Source of the DNA: a virus
Taxonomy: Duplodnaviria > Heunggongvirae > Uroviricota > Caudoviricetes
IMG/VR virus record: IMGVR_UViG_3300028591_000112
Location: 31,934-95,933 of that record
DNA length: 64,000 nucleotides
Strand: one strand, 5' to 3'
Of this stretch, positions 1-64,000 are shown piece by piece; the first letter of the stretch is position 1; every line of letters begins with the position of its first letter. The notes under the pieces are model-generated. The model searched no databases. It had not been told where the DNA came from and saw nothing but the letters and a program-made list of their open reading frames with translations. The position numbers and the translations under genes were made by a program.

Positions 1-3000
1 CTAGTTTTGCAGAAGCATATCAAAAAATGGCTGCGGATTCTGCAGAATGAGCAAGAACATCTAAAAAGAATTTAATTGTTGGAACAACTGGAACTGGAGC
101 TGTAGCTACTGGTAAATTTAAAACTAAATGAAGTGCTAGTAATACTAGTGGAGTAGTGTCTAATACTCAAAAAGGAGAATTATCTTCTGCAGAAGGTTTT
201 TCTCAAAATATAGATTGAAATTCAGTTGCGAGCTATTATTCTGACTTATCAGATTCATATAGAAAAGCTGCAGGAAATACTCAAGCTAAAATTGCAGAAA
301 TTCAAGCACGTAATGCAGGATTATTAAATAATTTAAGAGGTGCTGGAACAGGTAGTCGTTCTGGTGGTGGGGGCAGTGCAGACGAAGCTAATATTATTGA
401 TTTTTTAGATGATACTGCAGATAGATATCATAAAGTTAATACTCAAATTGAAAAAACTAGTAATTCATTATCGTTATTACAATCTCAACAAGAAAAATTT
501 GTTGGAGCAAAATTAATTGATAATTTAAATAAACAATGAAATTTATTAAATCATCAAATAGAAAATTATAATGAAAAATTAAGAATAGCTAATGATGAAC
601 AAACGGAGTTAGCTAGTAAATTAGCTGGTCAAGGCGTAGTATTTAATGCAGATGGCACTATTTCTAATTATATGGAGGCTTTCCAAGCGCAAGAAAATTA
701 TGTAAATAGTTTAATTGCACAATATAATGGATTATCTGCCGCACAACAAGAAGTATGAGACAATAATAAAACAATTGATAATGCTAAAGATAACTTTAAT
801 AAATTTAAAGAGGATATGGATAGATATGATGAATTAATATCTAGTTTTATTCCTGATTTACAACAATCAATTCAAGATACTGTTGATAAAATGATTGATA
901 TAAATGTAGAAAAATTTAATAAAGAAATAACTATTCATTTAGACATGAATGCGGCAACAAGAGAATGAAATGAATGGAAGAAACGTGCTATTGATGGTAT
1001 TGAAACAGACAATATTTTAGGAAATGCACGTGCTAGATTAGAAGATTTCTACACATACTTCAATGGCGGAAATGGCGATATTGGAGTAGGAACTAGACAT
1101 GTAAATGAAGTTCTTGCAGAACTATATAAAATGGATAATGGACAATCTACTTTATATGGTAATAATAGAGCCAAAGCATTAGAAAATTTAGAAACATATT
1201 ATGAACAATTAAAGAAATCTATTACTGAATTTATCGCTTTACAAGATGAATTATATCAAGATGTTTTAGATGAAATGGATAGTGTTTCTAATGAATTTAG
1301 CAGACAAATTAAGAGTTATGAATATTTAAGAGAAATTTTAAATCATGATATGAAAGTTATTCAACTTGCATATGGAGAAGATTCATATAATCAATTAGCT
1401 AAATTCTATGAAGCAAATCAAAATAATTATGAAAAACAATTAGAATTCCAAAGACAACAACGTGATTTCTGGTACGAAGAAATGAGAAGTGCGGAAGAGG
1501 GTTCAAAAGCATGAGATTCCGCAAGAGAAAAATGAGAAGAAGCAACTAAGTCATTTAATAGTTTATTAGAATCTACTCTTGAAAATGCTAGAAAGAAATT
1601 TGAAAATACTATTAATGATATATTTAAACAATTAAATAATAAAGTTACTGGCGGAATGGGATTAGGATACGTTAATGAACAATGGAATTTAATTAATAAA
1701 AATGCAGATGAATATTTAGATACAATTAATGCTGTATCAGGAATTCAATCTCTTGAACAAAAATATTTAGATGCATTAAATAAATCAACAAGAGTATCAG
1801 ACCAAAGAAAAATTAGTGCTTTAATGGATGAAGAATTAAATTCATTAAAACAAAGAGATAAATTAACTCAATATGATTTAGATAGAGCAGAAAAGAAATA
1901 TAATTTAATGGTTGCTCAAATAGCATTAGAAGATGCTCAAAGAAATAAAAATCAGATGAGATTAAGACGTGATACTCAAGGCAATTATAGATATCAATAT
2001 GTTGCGGATCAAGATGCGGTTGCCGCAGCAGAAAGTGAATTAACAAATGCATATACTGATTTATATAATTTTGATTTAAATAGATATAAAGAAGTATTGA
2101 ACGAGATATATAGCTCTTGAGATGAGTATCAACAAAAAATGGCGGAGGCCGCATTAATCAATGACCCAGAATTAAGAGCACAAAAAGAGTTATTAATTCA
2201 AGAACAATATGGTGAATTAATTAATGGATTAGTTGAACAAAATCAAGAAATTAGAAATAATCTTCAAGAATCTGCTTTCTTATCATTAAGTAATTTATAT
2301 GAAGAAGATTTAATGAGATTCGCAGATATGACAATGAGTGAAAGAGAATTGTTGTTAAGTGAAGTTGGTGGAGGATTTGATTTATTACTTCAAATATATG
2401 GAGTTAATACTGAAGAATTTAGAAATATGACTGAAGACCAACAAAATGCAATAATGGAAAATATAGGCGGATCTATAAAAGCATTAAGCGGATATTATAA
2501 TGAAGACATATTAGCGTTTAGAAGAATGGGTGAAGCTGAACAAAGTATTATTGTTAATGCTATTGTTCCTCAATGGAATTCAGGCGTTCAAGCAATGGCG
2601 GAAGTATTCTATGGAGAAAATGGATTTGAAGCAAATACTATTGATGCATGGAATAATATTAAGGAAGCTGAAAATGAATATGCTAATGATTTAAATGAAT
2701 TAGAGTTAATTGCTAATGAGACATTTAGTGCTATTGCTGATGGTGAAGATGTTTCTATTGAAAAAGCTCAAGGTTTAATTGATATTAATCAAGAATTAAT
2801 TGATAAATATGGAGAAGAATTAAAAGCAGTTCAAGATGTTTATGCGGAAGTCAGTAGATTAGCAGATGAATATCATAGAGCGTATGAAGAAGCTACTAAA
2901 GCTGCGGAAGCCGCTTACAAATATAGACAACAAGAACGTGAAGCGGAAGCTGCGGCTGCGCAACAAGCAACGCAAGAAGCGATTAATAACTCAACTCCTT

Positions 3001-3647
3001 CAGTGGATATTGGCGGAAATGGATCTGGTACAGGAGGCTCTGGCGGAAGTAGCGAAGGCGCCGCCAACACGAATAGTGGTTCTTCTATATCACATGACCA
3101 AATGGTAGAATTAGTATATCAAATGGGTAGAGGAACTTATGGTAGTGGAGCTACTAGAAAGAGTAGAGTTGAATCTGCTTATCCTGGAATGTTCTCTATC
3201 GCACAAGCCATTTTAAATGAAGCTATTAATTCAGATTATTATAATTATAGTCATAATGGTACTACATGAAGAAACGGTACAGTAAGTAGAATTGCATCTA
3301 AGTATGGATATGATACTGGTGGTTATACTGGTGCTTGAGGAAATAATGGTAAATTAGCTTTCTTACATCAAAAAGAACTAGTATTAAATGCCAAAGATAC
3401 TGAAAATATGTTAAATACAGTAGCGATTATGAGAAATATGGCCTATGCTTTAGGTGAAAATACATTAGCTAGACTTGCAAATGTTGCCGCAGGTAACGGC
3501 GGTTCATATGGTTCTAGCGGAGATTTATTACAACAAGATGTTAATATACATGCGGAATTCCCTGGCGTAAGAGATGCTAGAGAAATTGAAGAAGCATTAA
3601 ATAATTTAGTTAATGCTGCCGCGCAAAAGGCTATGGAGACAAGGTAG
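1..3647 (+). CDS. tail tape measure protein (5' partial, >1214 aa)
   Basis: One frame stays open from the window edge to TAG at 3645-3647 when TGA is read as Trp. The ORF track shows it as five collinear same-frame fragments broken only at TGA. Coiled-coil-rich with a Gly-rich tract (GSGTGGSGGSSEG). Lies immediately upstream of the tail-tip genes. Confidence 0.7.
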
Positions 3648-3675
3648 TTTTGTAGAGAAACTACCTTTTTTCTTT
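3643..3675 (+). terminator. rho-independent terminator after the tape measure gene
   Basis: Inverted repeat ggtagttt / aaactacc followed by ttttttcttttgg. Confidence 0.45.
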
Positions 3676-3755
3676 TGGTCTAATATTTATAATATACTTA
3701 AGGGAATTTTAAAAATAATTAAATAAGGATAGATAGAGATAAAAGGAGGATTTTT

Positions 3756-6700
3756 ATGAGTAGTGTTAATTATGAAAATCAAATCTTAACTGCTATTGAA
3801 ACACTAGTTGATAGTGCAGTTCAATCAGCTGGTTATGATAAGACGATTAAGGCAACTATCATAAATCAAACTAATGCGGCTATTGGTGAATATAAGGTAA
3901 AATACCAAGATAGTGTATTTTATGCTTATTCAATAGATACTGCAATAGTATATCCTAAAGATACTTTAGTCTATATTCAAGTTCCTGGTAATGACATGAA
4001 ACAAGTCAAAACCATTATTGGGGCAGTAAATAAAGATGATATAGATTATACTGAAGTTCTTGAAACAGAAGATTACTATGATGCGGTTGGCGGCAATAGT
4101 TGTAATAGTGAAACTACATATGGTTTATGCTCATATAATGGTGAAACTAATATAACTTTATACGACAGAGATAATAGTATTAATTTAGTTAATTATGATG
4201 AAGATTTGCTAAAAACTAATCTAAATGAAATGTATAATATTATTTGCGGCGCTTGATTTAAAACTGCTTTAGCAGATGAACAGAAAAAGCAAGGTAATTA
4301 TGGTATTACATTTGATATAGATTTTTATGATGATTTAGATAATACGAAGGTTATAACAAAAACTTATACAATAGATGTTAATAATATTGAAGGAAATCCT
4401 TATAATTTACTATCATTTATTCGTCAAATCAGAATTTTTGAAATTAAAAGCGAAAATTATGTAAATGTTAAAAAAATTGGCTTATTTTGTAAAGGTTTCC
4501 CAAATACAGAAGTAGGTCATGAAAATGATATATTTATTAAAATGCCTATTTTACAAGCGGCAAGAGAAATTCCTGAAGTCGAATTAAATGGTTATTCAGT
4601 TAAAATAGAAACTGATAAGAGTTATTTTAACAGCGAAGATGCGGAGGACGCGCAAACGAGCATTTCCGCAATTGCTAAGATTAAGGGTCATGAAATTGGC
4701 TCAAAGAGATCTGTTCAATATTATTGGTTCAGAGAAAATTCAGATATTTATCCAACTATGACTGGTTATAATACTTATGGTGGTGCAGGTTGGGAATGTT
4801 TAAATGAATATAACATTCTTGATTCTACTACCGGAGAAATAGAGTATATAACAAATAATAAGACTTTAACAATAGCAAAAACAGATTGTGTTGCTACTGA
4901 TAATAAATATAAAGTTGTAGTTATATTTAATGAAAATGGCACAGTAGAAGCGGATATAAATATTAAAAATTATAGTTCAGCATTTACTTTATCTATTGCA
5001 TCTGATGAAGGTACTGAATTTTATTATGGTAATGGAAGTCCTACATTAACATTATTAATTAATGGTGTAGAAAGTCCAGCTAATTATACTTATAAATGAG
5101 CAAAAGAAGATAATAATGGGTTATTCGAAAATCTTGAAGAAACTACTTCAGTTAATTCTACATATAATACATTAGTATCTAATTATAATACTCTTTTAGC
5201 TAGTGTTGCAAATGAGACTGTTTTACCTAATGCGGCAAAAGCACAGTTAGACACATATAAAAATCAAATTGCGGGATATGATGAAATAACAAGAGTAGAA
5301 GGTAAAAAAGTTTATAACATACAAGTTAATGAAATTGATGAATGAGCAACATATAAATGTACTGTATATAATAGTGGCGATATAATAGGTACTGCCGCAA
5401 TTACATTAAATAATTATCCTAAAATTGAAGGAGAATTTACATTAAATATTATAAATGGTACTCAAACATTTAATTATAATAGTGCAGGAATTGCTCCAAC
5501 AAGTCAAACATTACAAAGACCAATGGAATTAAAACCATTAAGTTTTACTATTGTTGACAATAAAGGTAACTTACTTCCTGATAGAATATTAAATTTATGT
5601 AATATACATTGAACTGTTCCAAGTGGCAATAGTTTAATTCAAGCAACAGATAGTACTGATTTAACTCTAGATTATACTCTTGCTGAAAATTATGATATAA
5701 ATTTAATTAATAATAGTAATATTAAATTAGATATTCAATATCAAGAATTGATATTACATGCGGAAACTAATTTTACTTTTATAAAAGATGGACAACCTGG
5801 TACTAATGGTACTAATATTATTTGTAAAATTGTTCCTTATACTGATGATGATTTTGATGGTTATCCAGTATTATATTACAATGGAAATGGAACAACATAT
5901 GGTACTCATTTTAAATTAAACTATACTCCTAATTCAAATTATAGATGGTTTAAATTACAATTATGGGAAAATGGTAGTTTAATTTGGGAAGGCGTAAATA
6001 GTCAAAAAAGCGGAAATGTAATAGTTAAATGGGAAGTTTTAAAAAGCAATTATACTAGTTCAGTTTCTGATTTATCTCATATTAGAATTACTGAAAGTAG
6101 TGGAACATCTGAAACAACTCATAATTATTCATTTTTCTTTAATAATATAGATAGTAATTTAGCTACATATCAATATGCAGCTGATATTATCAGAGGTGAA
6201 GTTACATATAAAGATAAAAAATATTATTGTACTTTACCATTAATAACTGTTAAAACAAATGATTGAACTAATTTTAATTATGAATTAGTTAAAAATAGTG
6301 GATTTAGATATGTGCTTTATACAAGTGATGGAATGTATCCTCAATATGAAAGTGATACTCCATTTACATTAAAAGTTACTGAAAAAATAAATGGATTTAC
6401 AGAAGATATTAGTAATTTAACTACTAATGCACATAAATTAACTTATAATTGAGGAGCATGCGGAAGTTCTTATTATAATGGTAATTGGCATCAAGATATT
6501 GGCTTAATTGAACAAACAATTGCCGCAAATAAAGGTACTTATGTTCCTATTGAAGAATGTGATGGTAGAAATGTTACTCATGCAATTAGAATTGCAATAA
6601 GTCAAAGCAGAAGTCAAATTGCTGAAATTCATATTCCAGTACATTTTTATTTAAATAGATATGGTGTTTCTGCATTAAATGAATGAGATGGAAACCATAT

Positions 6701-9700
6701 TGAAATTAATACTGATAAAGATGTAATATTAGCTCCACAAATAGGGGCTGGCAAAAAAGAAGCTGATAATTCATTTACTGGTATATTTATGGGAGATGTT
6801 TTAGAGGCTGGTAATGAAGAATCTAAAACTGGATTATATGGATATTATAAAGGTGATAAGACTATTGAGTTAAATTCAGAAGATGGTTCAGCTAAGTTTG
6901 GTAAAACTGGAGCTGGTCAAATTATTTTAGACCCAACTGATAATACAGCTAAATTAAAATCTGGTAATTTCTCAATGACATTAAGAGACCCTGCCGCCAA
7001 TGAAAAATATACTAATGGTTTAGTATATTATGGTAGTAGATCTGGTGTTAGTAGAATATTAGTTCCAGGAACTGATTATACTATTGGCAATAATGTTGCT
7101 AATGGAGATAAAATATGGACAAGTGGAAGTGGTTTAGAAATAGATTTAACTGACCCTCATATTATATTCGGTTCTGGAGATTTCTGGGTTGGAAAAGATG
7201 GAGATGTACATGCTAAGGAGTATGCTACAATTGCTAATTTGCAAGGCGGAGCATATACTATTCCACAAAGTTCTGTTGAAAATTTGACAACATTTATTAG
7301 TCAAACTAATAATAGTATAGATGAATTACAAAATCAAATAGATGGAAATATTACTACATGGTTCTATGAATATGAACCAGCTTTAAATAGACCACCGGTA
7401 ACGAGAGATGAAGCTCATCCTGAGGGCACTGGATGGACAACTACAGAATTAAAAAATCAACATTTAGGAGATTTATTTTATAATACTTTAACAGGCTATT
7501 GTTATAGATTTATGATAAGTGAAGGTGTTTATAGTTGGCAACAACTGAGTGATAGCGATATTTCAGAAGCATTAAGAATTGCTCAAGAAGCACAAGATAC
7601 TGCCGATAGTAAACGTAGAGTATTTTATAATACTCCAACTCCTCCATATGATGCAGGAGATTTATGAGTACAAGGTAGTACAGGAGATATTTTAAGATGT
7701 GCTACTCCTAAAACTAGTACTCAAGCTTATGCGGCTGTAGACTGAGTTGCAGCAAGTAAATATACTGATGATACATTAGCACAATCTGCTAATAATAAAA
7801 TAGATAATTTACAAATAGGTGGTAGAAATTTTGTTTTAGAAAGTAATATTCCTAATAAAGATGGGTCTACTGATGCATATCTTATTGGTAAATATAAATT
7901 AAGTAAAAATTTAGTAAATAATAAACAATATACTTGGTCTATTAATATAGAACCAACTACTAATAAAAAAGGTGTAGCAGTATATATTGGCGGAAACACT
8001 CATATATGCGGACGTTGGATAACAGCAAATCCTTTATCTACAGGCACTTATTCTTGTACTTTTATAGCTACTTCAGCTATGGAAAGTTTTGACACTGCTT
8101 GGATATATTGTTCTAATAATGAAGGTCCTCAAGGTACTACAGCTATTACTGGCACATGTAAACTTAATTGAGTTCAAATAGAAGAAGGAAATAGAGCTAG
8201 TGACTGAACTCCTGCCCCAGAAGATATAGAAAATGCGGCAATAGGTACGGTCACTGTTTTATATGCTTTAGGTAATGATACTACAATAGCTCCAACAACT
8301 GGTTGGTCTGAAGTGGCACCATCATGAACTGAAGGTAAATATATGTGGCAAAAAACTGTTATTACTTATGTTAATGGAGATACAGATGAATCTGATCCTA
8401 CTTGTATAGCGGGGGCAACAGGTAAAGCTGGAACTGGAATTACATATTTTGGTACTCGTTCTTGAACTAATGCACAAATAACTGATACATATATAATAGG
8501 TTATTCAGATACATGGGCAAATCAACTAAGCAAAGAAACTAAAGTTGGAGATTTATTATTGTTAGATGTTACTAATTCAACTTATAATACTAAATATGAA
8601 TATATATTAGAAGTTACTATAGGTGGGACATCTAGCCAGGCACCAACTGCAACAATTGTTGCAATTACAAAAGATGGTGATGCTACTGATATTCAAGTTG
8701 GTGGACGTAATGTCTTATGGAATTCAAGATATTTAAATATACCTTATACAATACAATCTCCATATATTTCATATTATAGTTTAACTGCAGCTTCAGTTAT
8801 TGAAAGAGAAGATGGTTTTAATGAAGTTCGTATTACAACGGGAGATAGTTGGAAAGGTATTGCATATAGTTTAAACTCATTAGAATTATCTGTTGGAGAT
8901 ATTTTAACAAATCAATTCTGGTTTAGGTCAAATAATGTTAGTGGAAAACTATCATTATATGCTATGTGTTATGATAGTGGTGGCAATAGGGTTAATGGTG
9001 ATTATTTAGCAGATATTACTTATGAAGGAGATTCAACAACAGGAGATAGTAAATTATTAGAGAACTTTACTAGCACAACAAATAAAAAAATAGTTGTATC
9101 ATTTAAATGAACTCAATTAGCTCAAGATTTAATTGATAATGGTGGAAGGATTACTTTAACTTTCCAAACACATAATTTAACTACTTCTGGTACTGGATAC
9201 TATACTGCGATATGGAAACCTAAAACTGAAATAGGTACTATTGCAACAGATTGGTCTCCTGCAGCAGAGGATACAATGCGTGAGACATTATCTAATGTTA
9301 TTACGACAGGTAGTCCAATATATTGTTATACTACATCAATTAATACCCCACCTTTAACTCCAGATATGAGCGGAGCTCCTACATGGGCGGCCGCACCTCC
9401 GGTAGAAAGTGGTAAGTATTTATGACAAACAACACCTGTTACTGTTGTAAATAGTTTAGGTGTTAGTACAACAACATATACTACGCCAATTTGCTTAACA
9501 CAACCTAAAATTGTTAATATAGTTCAACAATATTGTATGGTTAATGAAAGTAGTACAACTCAACCTGCAGAAAATGATGCTGGTTGAACAGCAGTTATAC
9601 CTGAATGAAAAATAAATAAAAAACTTTGGGTTAGAACTGCAACAATATATGATGATAATAGTTTACGTACTTATTCAAATTATCATATAGATACTACTTG

Positions 9701-53134: not shown

Positions 53135-53135
53135 A

Positions 53136-54158: not shown

Positions 54159-54180
54159 ATTTTACTCTCCTTTATTTAAA

Positions 54181-55233: not shown

Positions 55234-55246
55234 TTATGAATTGCCT

Positions 55247-56152
55247 TTACTCGTTTCCTTTTTGGCTATTAAATCCAAATTGATTAGATTGATATAGGTT
55301 TATATAGAATTTTTCTTTTTCATTAAGCTCTTCTTTTTTACATTTTTCTAGTAATTCAAAAGAAAAGTTCTCTAAACCATCGCTTATCATTGATTGATAT
55401 AGTTTATTACCTGCGGGGGTGTCGATCCCTAGACCAGCTTTAGCATGGTTTTTCCAACGTGTAGCCATTTCAGTACTTTGTCCTATATAAACAAAATTAT
55501 TTAATTGATTTGTAATTTTATATATCCCGCATACTTCTGCGGTAGATGAGCCTAAAACATTTGCACACACTTGATTCATAGGTTTTTGATAATAACTTTG
55601 TCAAATTAACATACGAAGAATACGCGTGTCATTTAATTTATATTCAATATCTTTTAAAATTTTAACATCTTTTAAATCATTTTCTTTAATTTGAGGACAA
55701 TAGAAAGATTTTTTATCTTTTATTTCCTGTTCTTTTAATTGCGCTTCAAGTGCGGCCGCCCTCGTAGAGAATAATTTATCGAGGTCTTTCTCGATCAAAC
55801 CGGTTTCCGCAAGTAATTTATCTTGTCTTTTTTCATAGCTCATTTTAAGAACATTTATTGCGGTATCAAATTCTTCTTCTGCCTCTTTATATTTATTATC
55901 TAATACTTTTTGATATTGTGAAAAAGCATTTTGTGTAATTTGTTCAGTATTGTTAACTGAATTATTTAAATTTTCTATTTCTAATATTATATTATCTTTT
56001 TGTTTTTTTAAATTTTCAATTTCATTATTTAATATTTTTTGTTGATTAATTGTATTTTTATTTATTTCTATTGTTTTTATATTTTTCTTTTTTCATAAAT
56101 ATCAAAAAATTATTACTAATAATAGTAAACATATAATTATAATATCTTTCAT
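55247..56152 (-). CDS. membrane-anchored coiled-coil protein fused to a C-terminal minimal GIY-YIG nuclease domain (301 aa under code 4)
   Basis: N-terminal TM helix IIIICLLLLVIIFWYLW, then a long coiled coil. TGA at 55601-55603 in frame, then GIYKITNQLNNFVYIGQS...ATRW...EKFYINLYQSNQFGFN. I checked the frame codon by codon from 56152. Confidence 0.45.
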
Positions 56153-56164
56153 TTTTAATACCCT

Positions 56165-56205
56165 TTCAAAAAGAAAAGTTGAGTATTTCTACTCAACTTA
56201 GTTAT
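56165..56205 (-). terminator. rho-independent terminator
   Basis: Minus strand aagttgagta gaaa tactcaactt ttcttttt. Confidence 0.55.
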
Positions 56206-56210
56206 ATAAA

Positions 56211-56486
56211 TTATTCAGCGTCGTCTTCTGCGTCGATGTCTAAATCTTTACCTTCAGCAGTTAATACGATATGTTTAACTTTTTTATGAGTTCCATCTTC
56301 TAATTCAACTTCTGCTTCTTTTCTTTCCATTAAACCTTTTCTGCAGAATGCTGATGTAACGATACCATTAACTTGTCTTGGATTTAAACCAGTTGCTTCA
56401 GCGATATCAGCTGCAGTAATATCATTTCCTTCATTTTCTTTTACATAGTTATAAACTAATTTACTATTTTCACTAAATTTTGCCAT
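56211..56486 (-). CDS. small HTH DNA-binding protein with acidic C-terminal tail (91 aa)
   Basis: ITAADIAEATGLNPRQVNGIV helix-turn-helix. C-terminal DLDIDAEDDAE. Its own promoter and terminator. Confidence 0.45.
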   Translation of the reverse strand: MAKFSENSKLVYNYVKENEGNDITAADIAEATGLNPRQVNGIVTSAFCRKGLMERKEAEVELEDGTHKKVKHIVLTAEGKDLDIDAEDDAE

Positions 56487-56532
56487 ATTGTTTTTTCTCC
56501 TTTTTCTATTATTTATTTTATTTTATATGAAT

Positions 56533-56561
56533 ATTATAATTAAAAATTTGGCTCTTTTCAA
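56533..56561 (-). promoter_or_regulatory. consensus sigma70/sigmaA promoter
   Basis: Minus strand TTGAAA, 17-nt spacer, TATAAT, about 45 nt upstream of the HTH gene. Confidence 0.5.
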
Positions 56562-56616
56562 ATATATATTCTTTATTTATATATTTATTATAAACTAAAA
56601 TTTTTATATTATCAAA

Positions 56617-58533
56617 CTAACAAAACTTTAATCTAAATTCATCTTCCGTAATAATTGGTATTCCGGATTTTTTAGCGGCAATATTTTTGCTTGATTGACT
56701 ATTTATATCGTTATTTATTAAATAAGTTACTTTGCTAGATATAGAATCAACCACTTTACCACCCTTATTTTCAATATATGCTTTTAATTCATTTCTATTT
56801 TTAAATGTTAATAATTTACCTGTAATACAAAACACTTCTTTACTTAAGGTATTATCTTCTTTTTTATCATCTTTTTCTTGAATATTAAAAGCATATGATA
56901 CAACTTCATCAAGCTCTTTATAATTGAAATCTAAAAGAGCGGCGGCCATTGCTTCACCAAAACCATTATATTGTGTGAAATCAAATTTTGAATTTACCTT
57001 TTCTCTAAATTCACCATAAGTTTTAATATATTTACATAACTCTTTCGCAATAGAGCGGCCTATTAATGGGATACCAGCTGCCGCAAGGACAGCATCTAAA
57101 CTTGGATTTTTACTATTTTCTATGGCGTTCAAGATCCTCTCCACAGACTTTTCACCAAAGCCTGGTTTTGTTTTCCATTCATTTGAGAAGTTTTCTAATT
57201 TATATATATCAACAAAATTAGAAATCCAACCCCAGTTTATAAGTTTCTCGAGAGTTGCCGTTGAAAGCCCCTTAATATCTAATCCAGTTTTTCCACAAAA
57301 ATGGTCTAATCGGTTTATCAATTTACCTTGACATTGTGTATTGGTACAATATAAGGTAACTACTCCATCATTTTCATTTAGACGAGTAGCTCCGCCGCAT
57401 ATAGGACATTTATCGCATTTAAATTCAGATATTGTTAGCGGTTTTTGTTCTGCTTTTGATATTTGTGGTATTATCATATTTGATTTAAATACCCATATTT
57501 TTTGACCTTTATAAGGTTGTCCTAATAGTTCTGACATGATACTTACATTATGTAAACTTGCTCTTGAAACCTCTGTTCCGTCAATTTCAACAGGATTAAA
57601 AATAGCAACAGGTGTAAGTATACCAGTTCTACCCATACTCCATTCAATATTCTGTAAATAAGTTTCATATTCTTCATCATAAAATTTATATGCTATCCCA
57701 CCTTTAAAATGATGGTCTGTTTTTCCTGCCGCATCATAAATTCTATTTAAGTTATATTTAAAAACTACACCATCAATAGGATAATTCTTTATATCAGATT
57801 GTTCTTTTATATAACTAATAATCCAATTAATATTGGTTGAAGTATCTACAATAAAAGGGACTGTTGTAAAACCCAAAGTATCTAATAAATGTAATTCAGA
57901 TTCTAGACTAATAAACTTATTATCGTTATCAATAATATCCCATGCAATAAAAGTTAATTTTCTTTTTGAACTTTCTTTACTATCTAATAGTCTAATACTT
58001 CCTGCAGCAAAATTTCTAGGATTTTTATATTCATTTTCGAACTCTTTAAAATCTTCATAAGTACAAATAATTTCTCCATCAATAATTAATTCATCATTAT
58101 AATTTATTTTATTAGGAATATTTTTTACTTGTAAAGCATTATGTAAAATATCTTCTCCAATTTCGCCATTGCCGCGAGTTTCTGCAGAAAATAATTTACC
58201 ATTAATATATCTTAATGAACAAGTTAATCCGTCCATTTTTGCCATAGCAATATATTCTTCTTTATCACAAAAAGACGCTATTACATTTATATCTTTAGTT
58301 TTATCAAGAGATAACATAAGATGATTATGTTTTACTTTTTTTAAATCATTTACTAATTGGTAATTAATATTTTGAGTAGGACTATCTTGATAATATATAT
58401 TATATTTATTTTCTAAATTTTGTAATGTAAAATACATATTATCCCATTCACTATCTGAAATTTCTGGATGTCCTTCATCATATAGTTTAGTATAATAATT
58501 TAATTTATCAATTAAATCTCTAATCTCTTGCAT
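56617..58533 (-). CDS. ligA: NAD-dependent DNA ligase
   Basis: KMDGLTCSLRY (KxDG adenylation motif), OB fold, Zn finger CDKCPICGG, HhH and C-terminal BRCT. 638 codons without TGA. Confidence 0.8.
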   Translation of the reverse strand: MQEIRDLIDKLNYYTKLYDEGHPEISDSEWDNMYFTLQNLENKYNIYYQDSPTQNINYQLVNDLKKVKHNHLMLSLDKTKDINVIASFCDKEEYIAMAKMDGLTCSLRYINGKLFSAETRGNGEIGEDILHNALQVKNIPNKINYNDELIIDGEIICTYEDFKEFENEYKNPRNFAAGSIRLLDSKESSKRKLTFIAWDIIDNDNKFISLESELHLLDTLGFTTVPFIVDTSTNINWIISYIKEQSDIKNYPIDGVVFKYNLNRIYDAAGKTDHHFKGGIAYKFYDEEYETYLQNIEWSMGRTGILTPVAIFNPVEIDGTEVSRASLHNVSIMSELLGQPYKGQKIWVFKSNMIIPQISKAEQKPLTISEFKCDKCPICGGATRLNENDGVVTLYCTNTQCQGKLINRLDHFCGKTGLDIKGLSTATLEKLINWGWISNFVDIYKLENFSNEWKTKPGFGEKSVERILNAIENSKNPSLDAVLAAAGIPLIGRSIAKELCKYIKTYGEFREKVNSKFDFTQYNGFGEAMAAALLDFNYKELDEVVSYAFNIQEKDDKKEDNTLSKEVFCITGKLLTFKNRNELKAYIENKGGKVVDSISSKVTYLINNDINSQSSKNIAAKKSGIPIITEDEFRLKFC

Positions 58534-58549
58534 ATGTATCTCTCCCTTT

Positions 58550-58578
58550 CTTTATATATATTATAAGATAATTTTTAT
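58550..58578 (-). promoter_or_regulatory. consensus sigma70/sigmaA promoter for ligA
   Basis: Minus strand TTGCAA, 17-nt spacer, TATAAT, upstream of RBS aagggagag. Confidence 0.5.
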
Positions 58579-58599
58579 GTTATTGCAAATTTCTTTATA

Positions 58600-58631
58600 T
58601 GAAAAAAGTGTTGTTATAATTTAACAACACT
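58600..58631 (-). terminator. terminator hairpin overlapping the gyrA stop
   Basis: agtgttgtt ataattt aacaacact followed by ttttttc on the minus strand. Confidence 0.45.
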
Positions 58632-60941
58632 CTTAACATTATTTTGAATAAGTTTAACTCCAATAGTAGTTCTTCCTTGAGTATTTAATTCAGTTGCGGG
58701 GATACATATACTATTAGGAGTTCCTATTAATAATAAACTATCATCATTAGTTATTGCGGCCGCACCTGCAAGGTTAATACCTAATTTTAATCCCTTGCCT
58801 CCGCGTCCTTGTAATGAGAACTCAGATATATCACATTTTTTCCCATAACCCTCTACACTAATAAAAGCTATTTCTTTTGTATCTTTAGAGATAGGAATTC
58901 CGCAAACAACCTCATCATCACTAGCTAAATTAATACTTTTTACTCCACTAGTTACTCTACCTATTGCCGCAATATCTTTAGTAGTAAATCTTATGCTCAT
59001 ACCATTTTTAGTACAAACTAAACATTCTTCGTCCTTCATAAATAAAACATTAGCAATACTATCGCCATCTTTTAATTTAATAGCTTGAGTTCCTGTAGAT
59101 TTTTTAATTGATTTATATTCACTTAATAAAGTCTTTTTAAATAAACCTTGTTTTGTTATAAATACTACATAATCAGCATCTAAATCTCTGTCCATACTTG
59201 CGGCAGCAATAATTTTTTCATTTGGTTCCATGCTAATTAAACTAGCTAAATTTTGTCCTTTTGATACATTTGTACCAATAGGTAGTTTATCAACTAATAT
59301 TTTATACATTTTACCTTTATTAGTAAACACTAATAAGTTATCAATAGTATTAGTTTTTATAGTGGCTAAAATTGCATCATCTTCAGATTTAATTCCTTTT
59401 CCGCCTCTTTTTTGAGTTCTAAAACTTGTTTTAGGAATACGTTTAACATCTCCAGTTTGAGATACCATTACAACAACATCTTCAGGGATAACTGTTGCAA
59501 TTTCTTTTTCTTCTTTTGGAACTTCAATTTGTGCTAGTTCAGTTTTTCTTTTATCTCCATATTTTTTAACTAAATCAGATAATCTTGTTCTAATTATTGA
59601 TAATTGAGCATCTTTATTGGTTAATGTATAATTATATCCATCTATATCATGTTCTAACTGGGCTTTTTCTTCATTTAATTCTATCTTTTCTAATTTCGCA
59701 AGAGAACCTAATCTCATAGCTACAATAGATTTTGCTTGGGGTTCAGTAAATTTATATTCTTTAACCAAACCTTCTTTTGCGGCAGCACTTGATTCAGACT
59801 TTTTAATAAATGTAATTATATTATCAATATCTTCCAATGCTTTAATTAATCCATTTACAATCTCTAGGCGGGCTTCCGCAGCATTTAAATCAAATTTAGT
59901 TTCTTTAATTAAACAATTAATGTTATGGTCTAAATATATTTTAATACAATCTTTTAAATTTACTTCTGTTGGAGTTTTATCTATTAAAGCAACTTGATTA
60001 TATGAAAAACTACTTTGTAAATCTGTTTTTGCAAACAATCTATTAGCTATTGCATCAGGATTAACTCCTTTTGCACATTCTACAACTATTCTTAAACCTT
60101 TTTTATTACTTTCATTTCTAATATTTACTATTTCCGCAATATCAGTTTCTGCTACTTCACCTATTTCCGCAATAAGTGCTTCTGTTGTAGTACCATAAGG
60201 AATTTCATAGAATACGATATTTTGTCCTTCAGTTTTATATTTAGCTCTAACTTTTACACTTCCATGTCCTGTTTTCATGATACTTGGAATATCATTCATA
60301 TTAATAACAATTCCGCCTGTTGGAAAATCAGGGCCAGGTAACATTGGTTCTTTACCGTCCATATAATCATATATAGCTGTTGCTACTTCTCCTAAATTAT
60401 GTGGGGCAAAATTACAAGCCATTGCAACACCAATACCTGTATTTGGATTACATAGTAAATTAGGGAATATAGCAGGTAATGTAACTGGCTCTTCTGCATC
60501 TTCAGAGTAATTAGGAATAAAATCTACATTTTGCTTTTTAATTCCTTTTAACATACCGTCTTCTGCAAGTTTAGATAACCTTGCTTCTGTATAACGCATA
60601 TGAGCAGGACCATCTCCATCAATATTTCCATTGGAACCATGGACTTCGATTAGAGGGTACCTCATAATCCAACTTTGGGAAAGACGAATCATTGCTCCAT
60701 ATATTGAACTATCTCCATGAGGATGGTACGACCCCATAACATCTCCTACAATACGAGCAGATTTTACATGTGGCTTAGAACTCCCATATCCACGTTCAAA
60801 AGCCCCCCATAATATCCTTCTAGCTACTGGCTTTAGTCCTGAGGTAGCGTCGGGTATAGCTCTGTCTTCATTTACTGCTGCGGCGTACTCAATAAAATTC
60901 TTACTTAATTCATTTATAATGTCATTAGTTTTGTTATCCAT
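58614..60941 (-). CDS. gyrA: type IIA topoisomerase subunit A (GyrA/ParC-like)
   Basis: RAIPDATSGLKPVARRIL, YHPHGDSSIYGAMIRLSQSWIMRYPL, MRYTEARL (active-site Tyr region). 775 codons without TGA. My own indexing puts the ATG at 60940 (one off from the ORF track). Confidence 0.8.
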   Translation of the reverse strand: MDNKTNDIINELSKNFIEYAAAVNEDRAIPDATSGLKPVARRILWGAFERGYGSSKPHVKSARIVGDVMGSYHPHGDSSIYGAMIRLSQSWIMRYPLIEVHGSNGNIDGDGPAHMRYTEARLSKLAEDGMLKGIKKQNVDFIPNYSEDAEEPVTLPAIFPNLLCNPNTGIGVAMACNFAPHNLGEVATAIYDYMDGKEPMLPGPDFPTGGIVINMNDIPSIMKTGHGSVKVRAKYKTEGQNIVFYEIPYGTTTEALIAEIGEVAETDIAEIVNIRNESNKKGLRIVVECAKGVNPDAIANRLFAKTDLQSSFSYNQVALIDKTPTEVNLKDCIKIYLDHNINCLIKETKFDLNAAEARLEIVNGLIKALEDIDNIITFIKKSESSAAAKEGLVKEYKFTEPQAKSIVAMRLGSLAKLEKIELNEEKAQLEHDIDGYNYTLTNKDAQLSIIRTRLSDLVKKYGDKRKTELAQIEVPKEEKEIATVIPEDVVVMVSQTGDVKRIPKTSFRTQKRGGKGIKSEDDAILATIKTNTIDNLLVFTNKGKMYKILVDKLPIGTNVSKGQNLASLISMEPNEKIIAAASMDRDLDADYVVFITKQGLFKKTLLSEYKSIKKSTGTQAIKLKDGDSIANVLFMKDEECLVCTKNGMSIRFTTKDIAAIGRVTSGVKSINLASDDEVVCGIPISKDTKEIAFISVEGYGKKCDISEFSLQGRGGKGLKLGINLAGAAAITNDDSLLLIGTPNSICIPATELNTQGRTTIGVKLIQNNVKSVVKL

Positions 60942-60942
60942 T

Positions 60943-61656
60943 ATTAAAATCCTCCTTTTCCAATAATTTATCTATTGTTATATTATTAAAATTCTTATAA
61001 GAAATTTCTATCAATTTTTTATTATTATTTATACACCATTGTTTTTTTATTTTATCTCTTTTTATTTGATTTGTCAATTTTTCTTTTGTATTTCAGCCTA
61101 TATTTAATGTTTCATAGTGTTGACTACCTTGATATTCTATTAAAATATTGTATTCAGGAAGAAAAAAATCAAACCTTAACTTAGCATTAGTTTCAGGATT
61201 AATGCAATCTTCAAAAGTTTTTTCTTTTTCAAAAATGATATTATTTTCTTTTAGAAGATTAGATATTCTTTCTTCGCCTAAAGATTTAATGCATCCACAA
61301 GAATGTGTATGTCCTCTTCTTAAATCGATACCATTTACAATGATTTGATTACCGCATTTACATTGACATAATCAAAAAACATCTTTATTAGCATTATTCT
61401 TCTTAGCTTTTTCTATAACTGTCAGCTTCCCATATACATTTCCTATTTCTTCTTTTATAAGAGATGCTCTATTTTTATCATCAGGGCATCGTGTAATTTT
61501 TTGTAAAGAATCAGATCTTACAGAATGAATCTTATCACAATTATCACAAGAGCATAACCAAAATGCTCTTTTTTGTTGATTTGTTCTGTCTATATCTAAT
61601 TTTATTACTGTCAAAGGTCCAAATTTTTGACCTGTTAAATCTTTTCTATTCGGCAT
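60943..61656 (-). CDS. free-standing endonuclease: tandem Cys-rich DNA-binding repeats + Vsr/PD-(D/E)xK-like C-terminal domain (about 237 aa)
   Basis: Two repeats (GQKFGPLTVI...FWLCSCDNC and VYGKLTVI...VFWLCQCKCG...HSCGC); the second Trp is encoded by TGA, giving an internal control for TGA = Trp. C-terminal FDFFLPEYNILIEYQGSQHY resembles the Vsr/DUF559 nuclease core. Inserted between gyrB and gyrA. Confidence 0.5.
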
Positions 61657-62218
61657 TATAAGAAGCCTCTTTACTATGAAGTTTGATGAAATCTTTACGA
61701 CTTTGAATAGCAGTCCCCATTAAATCATTAAATAATTTATCTGCGGCCGCCGCATCATCAACAGTTATTTGTTTAATAATTCTATTATCGGGATCAGTTA
61801 GTGTTTCTTCAGTTTCGTCTACGGACATTTCACCTAAACCCTTCATTCTATTAACAGTTATTTTTTTATCTCCTATTGATTTTTTAAATTCTTCTAATTC
61901 TTCATCATTTTTAATATATTTATATTCTTTACCTATTGTTACTTTATATAATGGTGGAACTCCTGCATATATATATCCATCTTCAATTAATTGAGGACAG
62001 AAATTCCATATAAAAGTATAGAACAAATTTTTAATATGCGCTCCATCAACATCAGCATCAGATTCAATAATAATTTTGCCATATCTTAAACTATCTTTAT
62101 CATAAGTAACTTGCATAGTTTTAGTATCAATATATAATCCAAAAGCATCTATCATAGTCATAATTTCCGCATTTTTTTGTATTTTATCTAAACTTGCTTT
62201 TTGTGTATTAAGTATTTT
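61646..62218 (-). CDS. gyrB: type IIA topoisomerase subunit B (GyrB-like), exon 2
   Basis: Starts KILNTQKASLDKI (completing RG|KILN). Contains GKIIIESDADVDGAHI and YAGVPPLYK. TAG at 61646. Confidence 0.7.
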   Translation of the reverse strand, partial: KILNTQKASLDKIQKNAEIMTMIDAFGLYIDTKTMQVTYDKDSLRYGKIIIESDADVDGAHIKNLFYTFIWNFCPQLIEDGYIYAGVPPLYKVTIGKEYKYIKNDEELEEFKKSIGDKKITVNRMKGLGEMSVDETEETLTDPDNRIIKQITVDDAAAADKLFNDLMGTAIQSRKDFIKLHSKEASYNAE

Positions 62219-63356
62219 CGTTTTCCCTTATATTTCTATAAGAACTGACTATCTCTTACTCTCTGAGTTTGTCATCACTCTTCTTCGAGCACTCCATTTC
62301 GAACTGCGTATCAATAGCAGCCCTACTCCCAGTCTAACCCGGGATAGTCGATACATGAGTTAATCTACATTTTTATAAGTTTCTCTTTTTATAATTGCTG
62401 CAATAGAACTTTCAGATAAATTATATTTTTCTCCTAATTCTCTATAACTAACAACTCCTTTTTTATAAGAATTTCTTATTTCTTTTACTTGGACATTAGT
62501 AAGTTTTGCATTAGTATGTCTTACCTGTTCTTTGTTTGGAATATTTCCAACAGTGACATAAGTTTGACCTAAAACTATTCTTTTAAAAGTTTGTTGATTT
62601 GAATATAAATCTTTAAAATCTTGATAAATTTCTTTTATTGGTTCTCCATCAATATATCTTTGTCTAATATCCCAAACTTGTTGATTTGTTAGTTTTGCTC
62701 GAGGATGATTTTCACTCATTAAAGATTTATTTTGTTCCCTTGTTTTTTGTCTTTTTAATTCGGTTTCTTCAGAATAAATATTTGGACTCCAGTATTGTCC
62801 ACCTTCAGTTGAATTATATCCATTTTTAAAAGTATCAAATTCTTTTATATATTTAATTTCTAAATCATCTAATTCTTTTTCTTCACATAGTTTTAATATA
62901 ATTACTTCAAAATTATCAATTCCATATTTTCTAAGAGCTTGATAAAACTTAGTATTATAATTACAATTATTTTCATTCTTATAATCTACTAAATGATGAC
63001 TTTGAAATCTTTTTCTAATATTTTTGCTTTGTCCAATATATTTTTTATTGTTTATTAAATTTACTACCATATAAATTCCACTATTAGCTGGTAGATTTTC
63101 TATATTTTTCATATTTATCTCTCCTTTGTCAATAATATATGAAAAATAGTTTTAAGTATTTATATATTTTTGTCCGTTTTTAGTATTTTAGATTAACATT
63201 TTCACACGGGATTACCTTCGCCTAAACATATTTTGACATATATGTGTAACGGTCAGGCTTCCCCGTTAGCATACATTTCTGTACACCCCACTGATAAGTG
63301 GTTAGAAGTGTAGAGGCAAATATTATTTCGGTATAGCCTTACGCTATCCTAAGTCT
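62219..63356 (-). other. group I intron interrupting gyrB at PVRG|KILN (TOPRIM)
   Basis: 5' exon ends AGAGGT (U). Intron ends ...gaaaacg (G). Core GUAUCGACUAUCCC and CAGCCCTACTCCC are identical to the nrdD intron. Carries a GIY-YIG ORF. Confidence 0.65.
62360..63112 (-). CDS. GIY-YIG homing endonuclease within the gyrB intron (250 aa)
   Basis: RBS acaaaggagagataaatATG. GIYMVVNLINNKKYIGQS...KYIKEFDTFKNGYN. TAA stop, no TGA. Confidence 0.75.
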   Translation of the reverse strand: MKNIENLPANSGIYMVVNLINNKKYIGQSKNIRKRFQSHHLVDYKNENNCNYNTKFYQALRKYGIDNFEVIILKLCEEKELDDLEIKYIKEFDTFKNGYNSTEGGQYWSPNIYSEETELKRQKTREQNKSLMSENHPRAKLTNQQVWDIRQRYIDGEPIKEIYQDFKDLYSNQQTFKRIVLGQTYVTVGNIPNKEQVRHTNAKLTNVQVKEIRNSYKKGVVSYRELGEKYNLSESSIAAIIKRETYKNVD

Positions 63357-64000
63357 ACCTCTCACTGGCATTACCGCTTGGAACTCATTATCTCTTGCTG
63401 ATTTTAAGTTTCCGCTTGCGGAATCTCCCTCTGTGATATATATTTCACATTTGTTTCTATCTTTTGAATAACAATCAGCAAGTTTACTATCAAATTTTAA
63501 TGCTTTTTCTTTTTTCTTATTAGTTTCTCTTACTCTCTCACGAGCGTTTTTAGCTGCCTCTCTAGCTTTACGAGCGGCTGCCGCCTTATCAAAAATAGTT
63601 TTAATTTCTTTTTCATTATTAACTAACCAATATTGTAAATTAGTAGCAATAATAGTAGAGAAATTGCTCATATCTAATTTAGTAACAGTTGATTTTACTT
63701 GTGCATCATATGCAACATTAGGGGCAGTCATATTAAATACTATATACATACCTTCTTGTATATCATCTCCTGTTAAATTTTCTTCTTTATCTTTTAACCA
63801 TTTTTTATCTTTAAAGAATTTATTAAATTCTCTTGTAATTATAGTTTTAACTTGCGTTATATGAGGGCCTTTCTCTGTAAGACCTGTATTTACATAAGGA
63901 ATTAATGTTAATGAATAATTAGATGTATATGTTAATACCATGTCTAATTTTTCTTTTCCTTCTGCATACTTCATGTCAAATCTATTTGATATAATTTCTT
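63357..64000 (-). CDS. gyrB: type IIA topoisomerase subunit B (GyrB-like), exon 1 (3' part; N-terminus beyond the window)
   Basis: Transducer domain LTGDDIQEGMYIVFNMTAPNVAYDAQVKS and TOPRIM start EIYITEGDSASGNLKSARDNEFQAVMPVRG. The reading frame continues upstream past 64000. Confidence 0.7.

Follow-up and report, generated by a model that had tools for sequence, protein, structure and literature searches.

Gene content and reading frames

The window, by which we mean the whole 64-kb stretch of DNA analysed (GC 28.6%), carries a plus-strand late arm of structural and lysis genes and a minus-strand arm that is treated here as three blocks (Table 1). The leftmost block encodes a RuvC-like resolvase, GT1, an MT+GT2+GT8 protein, SPFH, dUTPase, a metallophosphoesterase, NrdG and the C-part of NrdD. 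The N-part of NrdD lies in the middle block, together with a dNMP-kinase-like protein, a split PolIII-alpha, RecD-like and RecJ-like proteins and a primase. The rightmost block encodes DnaB, a Sak4-like protein, the phrog_2367 protein (unknown function), LigA, GyrA and a split GyrB, among which homing-endonuclease ORFs are inserted. GenBank phages gave no near match to the window, the best DnaB match being 38%.

Table 1. Position, strand and Trp-codon content of the main features of the window
Feature	Position	Strand	Remarks
Late arm	27..27508	+	15 ORFs, 11 with in-frame TGA; TGA 57 vs TGG 78 (0.42)
Putative tape measure protein	27..3647	+	1206 aa, 11 in-frame TGA; named from size and position only
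Tail protein	3756..10343	+	2195 aa, 18 in-frame TGA; phrog_21973 tail protein, E 1.6e-35
Tail gene	10366..12651	+	weak fn3 match; TGA 5 vs TGG 6
Holin (Phage_holin_5_2)	12720..13022	+	Pfam match; 1 TGA
Endolysin	13015..14001	+	Peptidase_M23 + SH3_3 (Pfam); TGA 0 vs TGG 7
Fibre 1	14130..18356	+	1 in-frame TGA (2 segments)
Two baseplate-like proteins	23482..27508	+	658 and 687 aa, 2 and 8 in-frame TGA; relatives L050-L056
Leftmost block	27625..39164	-	TGA 29 vs TGG 17 (0.63)
NrdG W40 (CHNPETW)	37015..37017	-	TGA; ETW = GAA ACT TGA
Middle block	39165..51005	-	TGA 13 vs TGG 23 (0.36)
Rightmost block	51006..63974	-	nearly TGA-free; TGA 1 vs TGG 24 (0.04) outside homing-endonuclease ORFs
Free-standing homing endonuclease ORF	60934..61656	-	repeats FWLCSC, with TGG (61558-61560), and FWLCQC, with TGA (61372-61374)

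Translation table 11 gave a greedy non-overlapping ORF coverage of 0.749 (86 ORFs, median 125 aa), and reading through TGA raised this to 0.939 (52 ORFs, median 260 aa), with the longest ORFs growing from 775 aa to 2195, 1408 and 1206 aa. A TAG-recoded control reading reached only 0.79 (92 ORFs, median 119 aa). The long continuous genes that a preliminary description of this DNA had claimed under TGA = Trp were thus borne out by gene re-calling, table 11 giving the shorter genes. With TGA read through, 50 genes were usable, and 32 of these contain in-frame TGA, at 108 sites in total. In-frame TAA and TAG are absent (0 per 1000 codons, vs 26-73 in the other two frames), while TGA occurs at 5.4 per 1000 codons in frame vs 9.0 and 52.9 off frame. 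Of the 50 ORFs, 36 terminate with TAA and 14 with TAG, and TGA is never a terminator in the window; the one TGA close to any C-terminus, at NrdD aa 288, faces W8/TGA4 in aligned relatives. The earlier statement that TAA and TAG always stand at gene ends beside a ribosome-binding site and ATG is too strong, since ATG begins 42 of the 50 genes and an SD-like 4-5-mer at -20..-4 precedes 27 of the 50 starts (vs 9.4% of all ATGs). Its fragment counts likewise need revision: the putative tape measure gene, for which the longest TGA-free segment found no Pfam or PHROG match, falls under the standard code into 12 segments and the 2195-aa tail protein into 19, rather than five each, while fibre 1 does consist of two.

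Could these TGAs be true stops or errors, arising from pseudogenes, assembly artefacts, selenocysteine sites or occasional readthrough? Table 11 does break the genes, and nothing further speaks for this reading, to which we assign a negligible probability. All 108 of the 108 breaks are TGA, with no TAA, TAG or frameshift among them, and homology continues uninterrupted across them. Moreover, TGA is shared at the same columns by independent contigs from many metagenomes (135 cells), and we therefore rejected stops and errors as an explanation.

Residues opposite in-frame TGA

For a residue census, window TGA codons were masked as X and aligned to related IMG/VR phage contigs translated with the standard table. 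Across 999 aligned cells, the window TGA sites face W in 53%, TGA in 13.5%, F in 10%, L in 6%, Y in 4% and G in 0.5% (5 cells). At the 50 informative sites, W holds the majority in 32 and G in none. The window's own TGG sites served as a control and face W (75%), Y (7%) and TGA (5%) in relatives, so that the residue profile of TGA sites resembles that of TGG sites. In the reverse test, in-frame TGA of relatives lies opposite a window W in 263 of 382 cells. Six TGA sites of the 2195-aa tail protein have aligned relatives, of which aa 448, 619 and 977 face W only, aa 899 faces R1/W1, aa 167 K and aa 530 N. In the 687-aa baseplate-like protein, W, with or without TGA, stands opposite four of the eight sites; at two others W shares the lead (F3/W3 and E3/W3), and the last two face I/T and L.

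Standard-code PDB references place W at three conserved TGA sites, in PFL-activase (NrdG), RecD2 and LgtC. The W of 'GSEW' in D. radiodurans RecD2 lies opposite a window TGA in the RecD-like protein, and that of 'LWD' in LgtC opposite one in the GT8 domain. In NrdG, the ETW codon proposed earlier to encode a conserved Trp is confirmed as such, since it aligns with the W of 'RDTW' in E. coli PFL-activase and with W16/TGA11/Q2 in relatives. The internal control offered by the two repeats of the free-standing homing endonuclease, in which Trp would be written once as TGG and once as TGA, also holds at the codon level. Alignment to homologues, the check named in the preliminary description, therefore returns mainly Trp and hardly any Gly. 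Judged from these alignments, TGA in the phage genes is read as Trp.

The same census bears on code 25, under which TGA would encode Gly and the phage would infect Gracilibacteria or Absconditabacteria. Phages with this code exist and have low GC (Borges et al., bioRxiv 10.1101/2021.08.26.457843). However, with Gly in 5 of 999 cells and no Gly-majority site, we rejected code 25, and its chance of being correct is minute. Moreover, 64% of window genes are recoded. Phages of standard-code hosts are reported to recode 26-71% of theirs and host-adapted code-25 phages ~90%, so that the window falls in the first range and short of the second figure.

Graded TGA use and the codes of relatives

Recoding is graded along the genome: it is nearly absent from the replication genes at the right and frequent elsewhere. 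From right to left along the minus-strand arm, TGA/(TGA+TGG) rises from 0.04 through 0.36 to 0.63 (rightmost vs leftmost block, Fisher test, p = 6e-7), and it is 0.42 in the late arm. The A-ending share of K/E/Q/L(TTR) codons is 0.89-0.92 in every block, and TGA, at 42% of Trp codons overall vs ~90% A-ending codons in the other NNR pairs, is far below the mutational expectation under AT pressure. The homing-endonuclease ORFs inserted in the rightmost block have TGA 5 vs TGG 5. Relatives display a similar pattern: TGA is avoided in LigA (0/262), GyrA (1/104) and the phrog_2367 protein (0/167), and its share reaches 33% in NrdG, 52% in RuvC and 31-54% in homing-endonuclease genes. In the relative genome 3300028832_000101, the TGA share is 0.04 in the replication region (L004) and 0.43 in the baseplate region (L053). 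The core replication genes of 51006-64000 are thus readable in the standard code. Since their Trp codons outside homing endonucleases are TGG with a single exception, nearly all of these genes are identical under either code, and the earlier claim that the whole window is coherent only under code 4 applies to most genes but not to these.

The codes of relatives were judged from orthologous stop codons and in-frame TGA in aligned genes. High-TGA relatives use a TGA stop in 1 of 339 orthologous cases. Relatives without in-frame TGA (22 loci, most of them replication regions only) do so in 13 of 148, and TAG-recoded relatives stop at TAG in 2 and at TGA in 12 of 65. By these stop codons, sister phages follow either the standard code or a TAG recoding. 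The genomes of relatives span 105-146 kb, and some lie in ruminant-gut MAGs; relatives occur in bins with the labels Bacilli, Lachnospiraceae and Mollicutes, although binning is weak evidence of host. The source of the window is probably a tailed phage from the ruminant or animal gut, uncultured and low in GC, with a genome of ~105-145 kb of which the window covers about half.

A phage might simply share the code of a Mycoplasma- or Spiroplasma-type host. The very low GC of the window and its TGA = Trp agree with such a host-adapted code 4, and one relative lies in a MAG labelled 'uncultured Mollicutes'; that relative, however, is TAG-recoded and has no in-frame TGA. Known code-4 Mollicutes lack a cell wall, while the endolysin belongs to the peptidoglycan hydrolases and carries SH3 domains for wall binding. 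This domain pair implies a host with peptidoglycan and, together with the holin, a walled one. Given the endolysin, and with TGA not the dominant Trp codon (4% in the rightmost block against A-ending shares of ~90% in other NNR pairs), the window lacks the traits expected of a phage of a wall-less code-4 Mollicute. Sister phages with TGA stops or TAG recoding, and relatives that bear their own tRNA(UCA), also speak against a host-adapted code 4, which we regard as improbable. Phages of code-4 Mollicutes and code-25 Absconditabacteria have in-frame TGA in coding genes in common with the window, but they carry the codon in nearly all genes (~90% for code 25) and need no switch; the window instead has a 13-kb nearly TGA-free block and TGA far below mutational expectation. 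The recoding therefore seems to be specific to the phage and not an organismal code 4; both this distinction and the gradient were missed in the preliminary description.

Among published stop-codon-recoded gut phages, compared by description only, the window most closely matches the Agate clade. The study that describes this clade was reportedly published in Nature Microbiology in 2022. Agate phages read TGA as Trp, have genomes of ~127 kb, come from cattle and other animal guts, and combine codes 11, 4 and 15 in one clade, with core replication genes that keep the standard code, a TGA bias in intron homing endonucleases and in the tail protein that immediately precedes the lysis cassette, and a suppressor tRNA(UCA) in many members (Borges et al., bioRxiv 10.1101/2021.08.26.457843). 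The likeness extends to the genome sizes and partly ruminant-gut origin of the window's relatives, to the presence of all three codes among them, to their TGA-rich homing-endonuclease ORFs and to the tail gene at 10366-12651, where TGA makes up 5 of 11 Trp codons and whose position matches the preferentially recoded Agate tail gene. The Agate clade was defined on a terminase tree and the window has no terminase, so this is a likeness of traits and not a placement. Unlike in Agate, TGA extends deep into the window's arm of replication and nucleotide-metabolism genes (up to 63%), and the endolysin has none. TAG-to-Gln crAss-like and Lak phages (code 15) combine phage-specific recoding in a standard-code host with suppressor tRNAs and recoded late genes, the picture favoured for the window too, and differ from it in codon, amino acid and Bacteroidota hosts, being unrelated to it in sequence. 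For crAss-like phages, peptide-level proof of recoding is reported (PMC9523058).

Instead of timing, the TGA gradient could record selection acting on genes that are conserved or strongly expressed. A suppressor tRNA could operate without any role in timing if TGG drifted to TGA under AT pressure and purifying selection spared dosage-sensitive or conserved genes. AT pressure is indeed strong (~90% A-ending codons), the enzymes that avoid TGA in relatives (LigA, GyrA, PolIII-alpha) are the most conserved ones, and the endolysin has no TGA. Conversely, selfish homing-endonuclease ORFs inside the TGA-free block have 50% TGA, avoidance tracks both the type of a gene and its location in the arm, and lysis-associated and intron-homing-endonuclease families are significantly TGA-biased in the similar Agate clade (bioRxiv 10.1101/2021.08.26.457843). 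We consider this explanation somewhat unlikely, yet the most serious of the competitors. Against a timed switch, the endolysin, with no TGA among seven Trp codons, is at odds with a simple picture in which lysis genes are the most recoded. A sigma-70 promoter scan, which bears on the temporal order, performed no better than on shuffles.

tRNA(UCA) of relatives and a proposed switch

The 64-kb window contains no tRNA, release factor or TrpRS gene, and the decoding agent of its own genome was therefore not observed. A tRNA with UCA anticodon, likewise not found within the window, is carried by relatives just beyond the position equivalent to its right end. This tRNA is 93-100 nt long and tRNA-Trp-like; at L064 it adjoins tRNA-Trp(CCA), ~7.4-7.6 kb upstream of GyrA. 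Two pattern scans found it on 10 contigs that also carry window relatives anchored on RecD or GyrA, and 5 of the 8 large contigs with GyrA of at least 76% identity are among those bearing it. In 37 of 52 members the body resembles tRNA-Trp more than any other tRNA, and 39 of 52 begin with A; G73 is present throughout an alignment of 13 sequences, 12 of which have A1-U72, and a 7-bp acceptor stem and 5-bp T stem are supported by covariation. The variable region forms an extra arm whose stem covaries and whose 7-nt loop, N-UCCAAA, is conserved; UCCAAA copies the anticodon loop of tRNA-Trp.

ARAGORN labels this tRNA SeC. We rejected a tRNA-Sec identity because the acceptor/T arrangement is 7/5 rather than 8/5, Rfam matches it best to its general tRNA model, RF00005 (60.4 bits), and the body most resembles tRNA-Trp. 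Class II variable-arm loops have 3-5 nt, and the 7-nt loop of the relatives' tRNA(UCA) is larger. With its UCA anticodon and long variable-region arm, this tRNA resembles class II tRNAs, tRNA-Sec and allo-tRNAs (Mukai et al., PMC5389517), from which the canonical 7/5 arrangement, Trp-like body and UCCAAA loop set it apart. Our literature search found no description of a tRNA(UCA) with a Trp-anticodon-loop extra arm.

In our view, the window is probably best explained by phage-specific recoding of TGA to Trp, switched by a phage tRNA(UCA) in a walled standard-code host. The host would be a Bacillota bacterium, whose machinery would translate the rightmost replication genes first, as gene content and strand suggest. 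tRNA(UCA) might then be produced from a phage tRNA array just past the right end of the window, be charged with Trp and outcompete RF2, making TGA-bearing genes translatable. The genes unlocked would be those for nucleotide metabolism, DNA modification, homing endonucleases, structure and lysis. More speculatively, the extra arm could preserve TrpRS recognition after the anticodon change from CCA to UCA. A five-arm tRNA that makes the switch from stop to Trp across the clade, with a Trp body, a UCA anticodon and an extra arm that returns to TrpRS the lost CCA identity element, so that the host enzyme does the charging, is an idea we advance with considerable doubt.

Phage-specific stop-codon recoding has already been published, and the window adds one more case of a known phenomenon. 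If the five-arm reading were true, the tRNA should lie a few kb past position 64000 in the genome from which the window comes. The reading would also answer how suppressor tRNAs are charged without a phage synthetase, a question left open by the published survey.

Decoding of TGA in the window

The preliminary description held, from sequence alone, that TGA encodes tryptophan in this phage and not glycine (genetic code 25), a finding that proves correct and well supported. IMG/VR is rich in related contigs, with up to 74% identity in the RecD-like protein and up to 85% in GyrA. The window's proteins were aligned to these loci with each query TGA masked as X and the standard table applied to the subject, and we read which subject codon faced each TGA of the window. 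In the resulting 999 cells it was Trp in 53%, TGA in 13.5%, Phe in 10%, Leu in 6%, Tyr in 4% and Gly in 0.5%. Of the 108 in-frame TGA codons in the 50 genes that we kept, 52 are covered by one or more relatives and 50 of those are informative; Trp is the majority residue at 32 of these 50, Gly at none. The window's own TGG codons behave comparably (Trp 75%, Tyr 7%, TGA 5%), and in the reverse test the in-frame TGA codons of relatives face a window Trp in 263 of 382 cells. Solved structures from standard-code organisms, too distant at most TGA sites and usable at three conserved Trp positions only, carry Trp at 3/3: 'DTW' of PFL-activase (for NrdG), 'GSEW' of RecD2 and 'LWD' of LgtC. Since both the codons of relatives and the structures show Trp at TGA sites, these alignments indicate that TGA encodes Trp in the window phage, and they rule out code 25.

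Re-calling the genes under different codes points the same way. Using our own ORF caller and greedy, non-overlapping coverage, table 11 yields a coverage of 0.749 in 86 ORFs (median 125 aa), compared with 0.939 in 52 ORFs (median 260 aa) when TGA is read through; a control with TAG recoded reaches 0.79 in 92 ORFs (median 119 aa). Neither TAA nor TAG occurs in frame in any of the 50 kept genes, yet both are frequent in the two remaining frames, and 32 of the 50 carry TGA (64% recoded). Two internal observations made earlier were confirmed: in the homing endonuclease (HE) repeat pair FWLCSC/FWLCQC the Trp codon is TGG in the first copy and TGA in the second, and the Trp of ETW in NrdG is encoded by TGA. 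The earlier fragment counts, five each for the putative tape measure and the tail protein, were too low, the actual numbers of segments being 12 and 19. A table-11 annotation fragments the 32 TGA-bearing genes, and gene catalogues from such contigs are wrong unless code 4 is applied.

Genome layout and graded use of TGA

The window (GC 28.6%) consists of two convergent arms; they join near 27.5 kb, at a change of sign in GC skew (see table). Exactly at this junction lies a hairpin with a terminator score on both strands. The replication arm includes an SPFH/flotillin-like protein, an unusual gene for a phage, which has no Trp codon of either kind. No tRNA gene is present in the 64-kb window, Rfam at gathering thresholds matches nothing in it, and GenBank phages show no near-DNA match to it; the closest GenBank phage protein matches are to DnaB only, at 35-39%, in Firmicutes phages. 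Three essential genes (nrdD, PolIII-alpha and gyrB) are interrupted by GIY-YIG endonuclease ORFs. Because in relatives the halves are contiguous in frame (called half-ORFs 96, 402 and 51 nt apart, respectively), the insertions look like introns carrying homing endonucleases; Rfam E-value searches found no group I intron in the three split genes.

Features of the window and of related IMG/VR loci (L-numbers); counts are of Trp codons
Feature	Location	Strand	Details
Late arm, late genes	27-27508	plus	TGA 57, TGG 78; TGA share 0.42
Putative tape measure, 1206 aa		plus	without family match
Tail protein, 2195 aa		plus	phrog_21973
Tail protein, 761 aa		plus	
Gene of the 761-aa tail protein, directly upstream of holin	10366-12651	plus	TGA 5/11
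Holin	12720-13022	plus	Phage_holin_5_2; TGA 1/3
Endolysin	13015-14001	plus	Peptidase_M23 + SH3_3; TGA 0/7
Two long fibre proteins		plus	
Two baseplate-like proteins		plus	
Hairpin	27516-27538		
Replication arm, replication and nucleotide-metabolism genes	27625-63974	minus	
Non-HE genes	27625-39164	minus	TGA 29, TGG 17; TGA share 0.63
Non-HE genes	39165-51005	minus	TGA 13, TGG 23; TGA share 0.36
Non-HE genes	51006-64000	minus	TGA 1, TGG 24; TGA share 0.04
RuvC-like resolvase		minus	
Glycosyltransferases; methyltransferase-GT2-GT8 fusion		minus	
SPFH/flotillin-like protein, 477 aa	31281-32714	minus	
dUTPase, metallophosphoesterase		minus	
ORF, 260 aa	34683-35465	minus	TGA 7/8
NrdG, NrdD		minus	
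nrdD (split)	37999-39165	minus	GIY-YIG ORF 38220-38990
dNMP-kinase-like protein, PolIII-alpha		minus	
PolIII-alpha (split)	43285-44674	minus	GIY-YIG ORF 43731-44465
RecD-like, RecJ-like, primase, DnaB, Sak4-like		minus	
GIY-YIG fusion	55247-56152	minus	TGA 3/4
LigA, GyrA, GyrB		minus	
gyrB (split)	62161-63339	minus	GIY-YIG ORF 62360-63112
Five-arm tRNA(UCA)	L064 2483-2578	minus	
Five-arm tRNA(UCA)	L099 290-385		
Five-arm tRNA(UCA)	L101 737-832		
Five-arm tRNA(UCA)	L104 8971-9066		
Five-arm tRNA(UCA)	L105 1638-1733	minus	
Five-arm tRNA(UCA)	L154, L171, L174		and ~45 further loci (L134-L190)
tRNA(CUA), 77 nt	L171 138-214	minus	
tRNA(CUA), 77 nt	L174 3898-3974		

The window is a well-resolved example of recoding graded along a genome, with TGA making up 4%, 36% and 63% of Trp codons across the replication arm (Fisher p = 6e-7 for the 51006-64000 block vs the 27625-39164 block). 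In all blocks, Lys, Glu, Gln and Leu (TTR) codons end in A at a frequency of 0.89-0.92, so TGA use falls far short of what AT pressure alone would predict. Selfish endonuclease ORFs within the TGA-poor block reach 50% TGA. Across relatives, TGA is scarce in LigA (0/262), GyrA (1/104), the phrog_2367 protein (0/167) and PolIII-alpha (1-4%) and abundant in NrdG (33%), RuvC (52%) and HE genes (31-54%), and in a single relative genome its share is 0.04 in the replication region vs 0.43 in the baseplate region.

Several individual genes deserve mention. The endolysin is free of TGA, a surprise if recoding mainly targets lysis genes; the adjoining holin and the tail gene directly upstream both carry it. 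The most strongly recoded gene of the window, a 260-aa ORF of the replication arm, has no homologue among the fetched loci and matches nothing in PDB, Pfam or PHROG, leaving a guess that it is ThyX unsupported. One ORF inside the otherwise TGA-free block joins a GIY-YIG nuclease domain to a transmembrane and coiled-coil region at its N-terminus, and most of its Trp codons are TGA. Sigma-70-like promoter counts in a scan of the window equal those of shuffled controls and are uninformative on which genes are early.

Codes of relatives, the host and published recoded phages

The code differs among close relatives of the window phage. Those with high in-frame TGA end at TGA in 1 and at TAG in 87 of 339 stops examined; the corresponding figures are 13 and 23 of 148 in relatives with no in-frame TGA, and 12 and 2 of 65 in those with in-frame TAG, where TAG is most often opposite Gln. 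The TAG-recoded relatives (L023, L054-L056, L071, L076-L078, L080-L082, L086, L088, L090 and L124-L126) have 50-61% GyrA/RecD identity, except that L054-L056 were compared through the baseplate protein, at 35%. There are exceptions based on small numbers: 4/8 TAG codons of L071 are opposite Trp, and those of L023 are mostly opposite Glu and Lys. L044 has 22 in-frame TGA plus 5 in-frame TAG codons.

It could be supposed that the phage simply shares the TGA = Trp code of its host. Four results argue against this: TGA use is graded along the genome, the same genes avoid TGA across relatives, close relatives differ in code, and the endolysin, a peptidoglycan hydrolase, carries wall-binding SH3 domains. 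The known TGA = Trp bacteria able to host phages are the wall-less Mollicutes. Three relatives were binned in MAGs from sheep, buffalo and other samples, and one of these MAGs is labelled Mollicutes, the others Bacilli and Lachnospiraceae. We rejected these mixed labels as evidence for a Mollicute host; all three relatives recode TAG and carry few or no in-frame TGA codons, and the 'Mollicutes' label therefore lends no support to a code-4 host. Instead, we propose a code switch during infection, in which the host would terminate at TGA, TGA-free genes would be expressed first, and a phage tRNA(UCA) would then permit translation of the remaining genes. In relatives, tRNA arrays upstream of GyrA include a tRNA(UCA) adjoining tRNA-Trp(CCA). 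The window stops short of this region.

Borges et al. (bioRxiv 10.1101/2021.08.26.457843) have described the same situation: phages whose Firmicutes or Bacteroidetes hosts keep the standard code reassign TGA as Trp or TAG as Gln, repeatedly within clades and beside standard-code relatives, with recoding concentrated in late genes, suppressor tRNAs frequent, and 26-71% of genes recoded vs ~90% in host-adapted code-25 phages. Among their clades, Agate has genomes of ~127 kb, sampled from animals including cattle, and members using codes 11, 4 and 15; an intron endonuclease within an early gene is biased towards TGA, and so is a tail protein immediately upstream of the lysis cassette (bioRxiv 10.1101/2021.08.26.457843). 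Our phage and its relatives resemble Agate in genome size, animal source, three codes, intron HE and pre-lysis tail gene, a likeness by description, the clade itself resting on a terminase tree. Unlike the typical picture of that study, TGA extends far into the arm for replication and nucleotide metabolism, and the endolysin lacks it. Recoding in the window is a published phenomenon rediscovered; the value of the window lies in correct annotation, a clear within-genome gradient and a tRNA lead in relatives.

The five-arm tRNA(UCA) of relatives

The tRNA(UCA) found on 5 of 8 large contigs with GyrA identity of at least 76% has an extra hairpin in its variable region, giving a five-arm molecule of 93-100 nt. 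It also occurs in many other low-GC viral contigs beyond the relatives of the window, often adjoining a normal tRNA-Trp(CCA). ARAGORN labels it SeC because of its anticodon only. It scores 60 bits against the general tRNA model; the UCA arm occupies the anticodon position, and the variable region holds an insertion of 23 nt. An alignment of 13 different sequences supports each of the five helices (97% of cells paired, 15 pairs changed on both sides), a level reached by 0/500 shuffles, while slid controls are 38-46% paired. In this alignment the extra arm shows compensatory changes in 5/6 pairs and an invariant UCCAAA loop; it was not selected for, since the collecting pattern covered the UCA arm only. 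A second scan that required UCCAAA returned 72 loci and 52 distinct tRNAs with 28 different extra-arm stems, and 38/52 have a perfect stem of at least 4 bp directly flanking the 7-nt loop, against ~3% in shuffled flanks. L171 and L174, both TGA-recoded relatives, carry a normal-sized tRNA with a CUA (amber) anticodon in addition to the five-arm tRNA(UCA).

The conserved loop of the extra arm, N-UCCAAA, copies the anticodon loop of tRNA-Trp. Bacterial TrpRS recognizes the CCA anticodon and G73 as determinants, with A1-U72 contributing. The five-arm tRNAs have A as first nucleotide in 39/52, with A1-U72 in 12/13 and G73 in 13/13 of the aligned sequences, and without the extra arm the body is closest to tRNA-Trp in 37/52, although just 14 of the 313 tRNAs used for comparison are tRNA-Trp. 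These features suggest that the extra arm may provide a substitute CCA loop for TrpRS. Recognition of the long arm by SerRS would be an alternative, but one that agrees poorly with the Trp seen where the window has TGA; alternatively, the molecule might switch between two folds, or the arm might serve another partner. Our literature search found no paper on a tRNA with a second anticodon-like arm, an absence that is weak evidence as most subscription journals lay outside the search. With the five-arm tRNA(UCA) of relatives, how a suppressor retains its amino-acid identity becomes an experimentally simple question, and the molecule may interest engineers of orthogonal UGA-decoding systems. The five-arm tRNA bears on how the code switch is carried out, and the gradient of TGA use, together with sister phages using three codes, offers material for testing whether recoding times gene expression.
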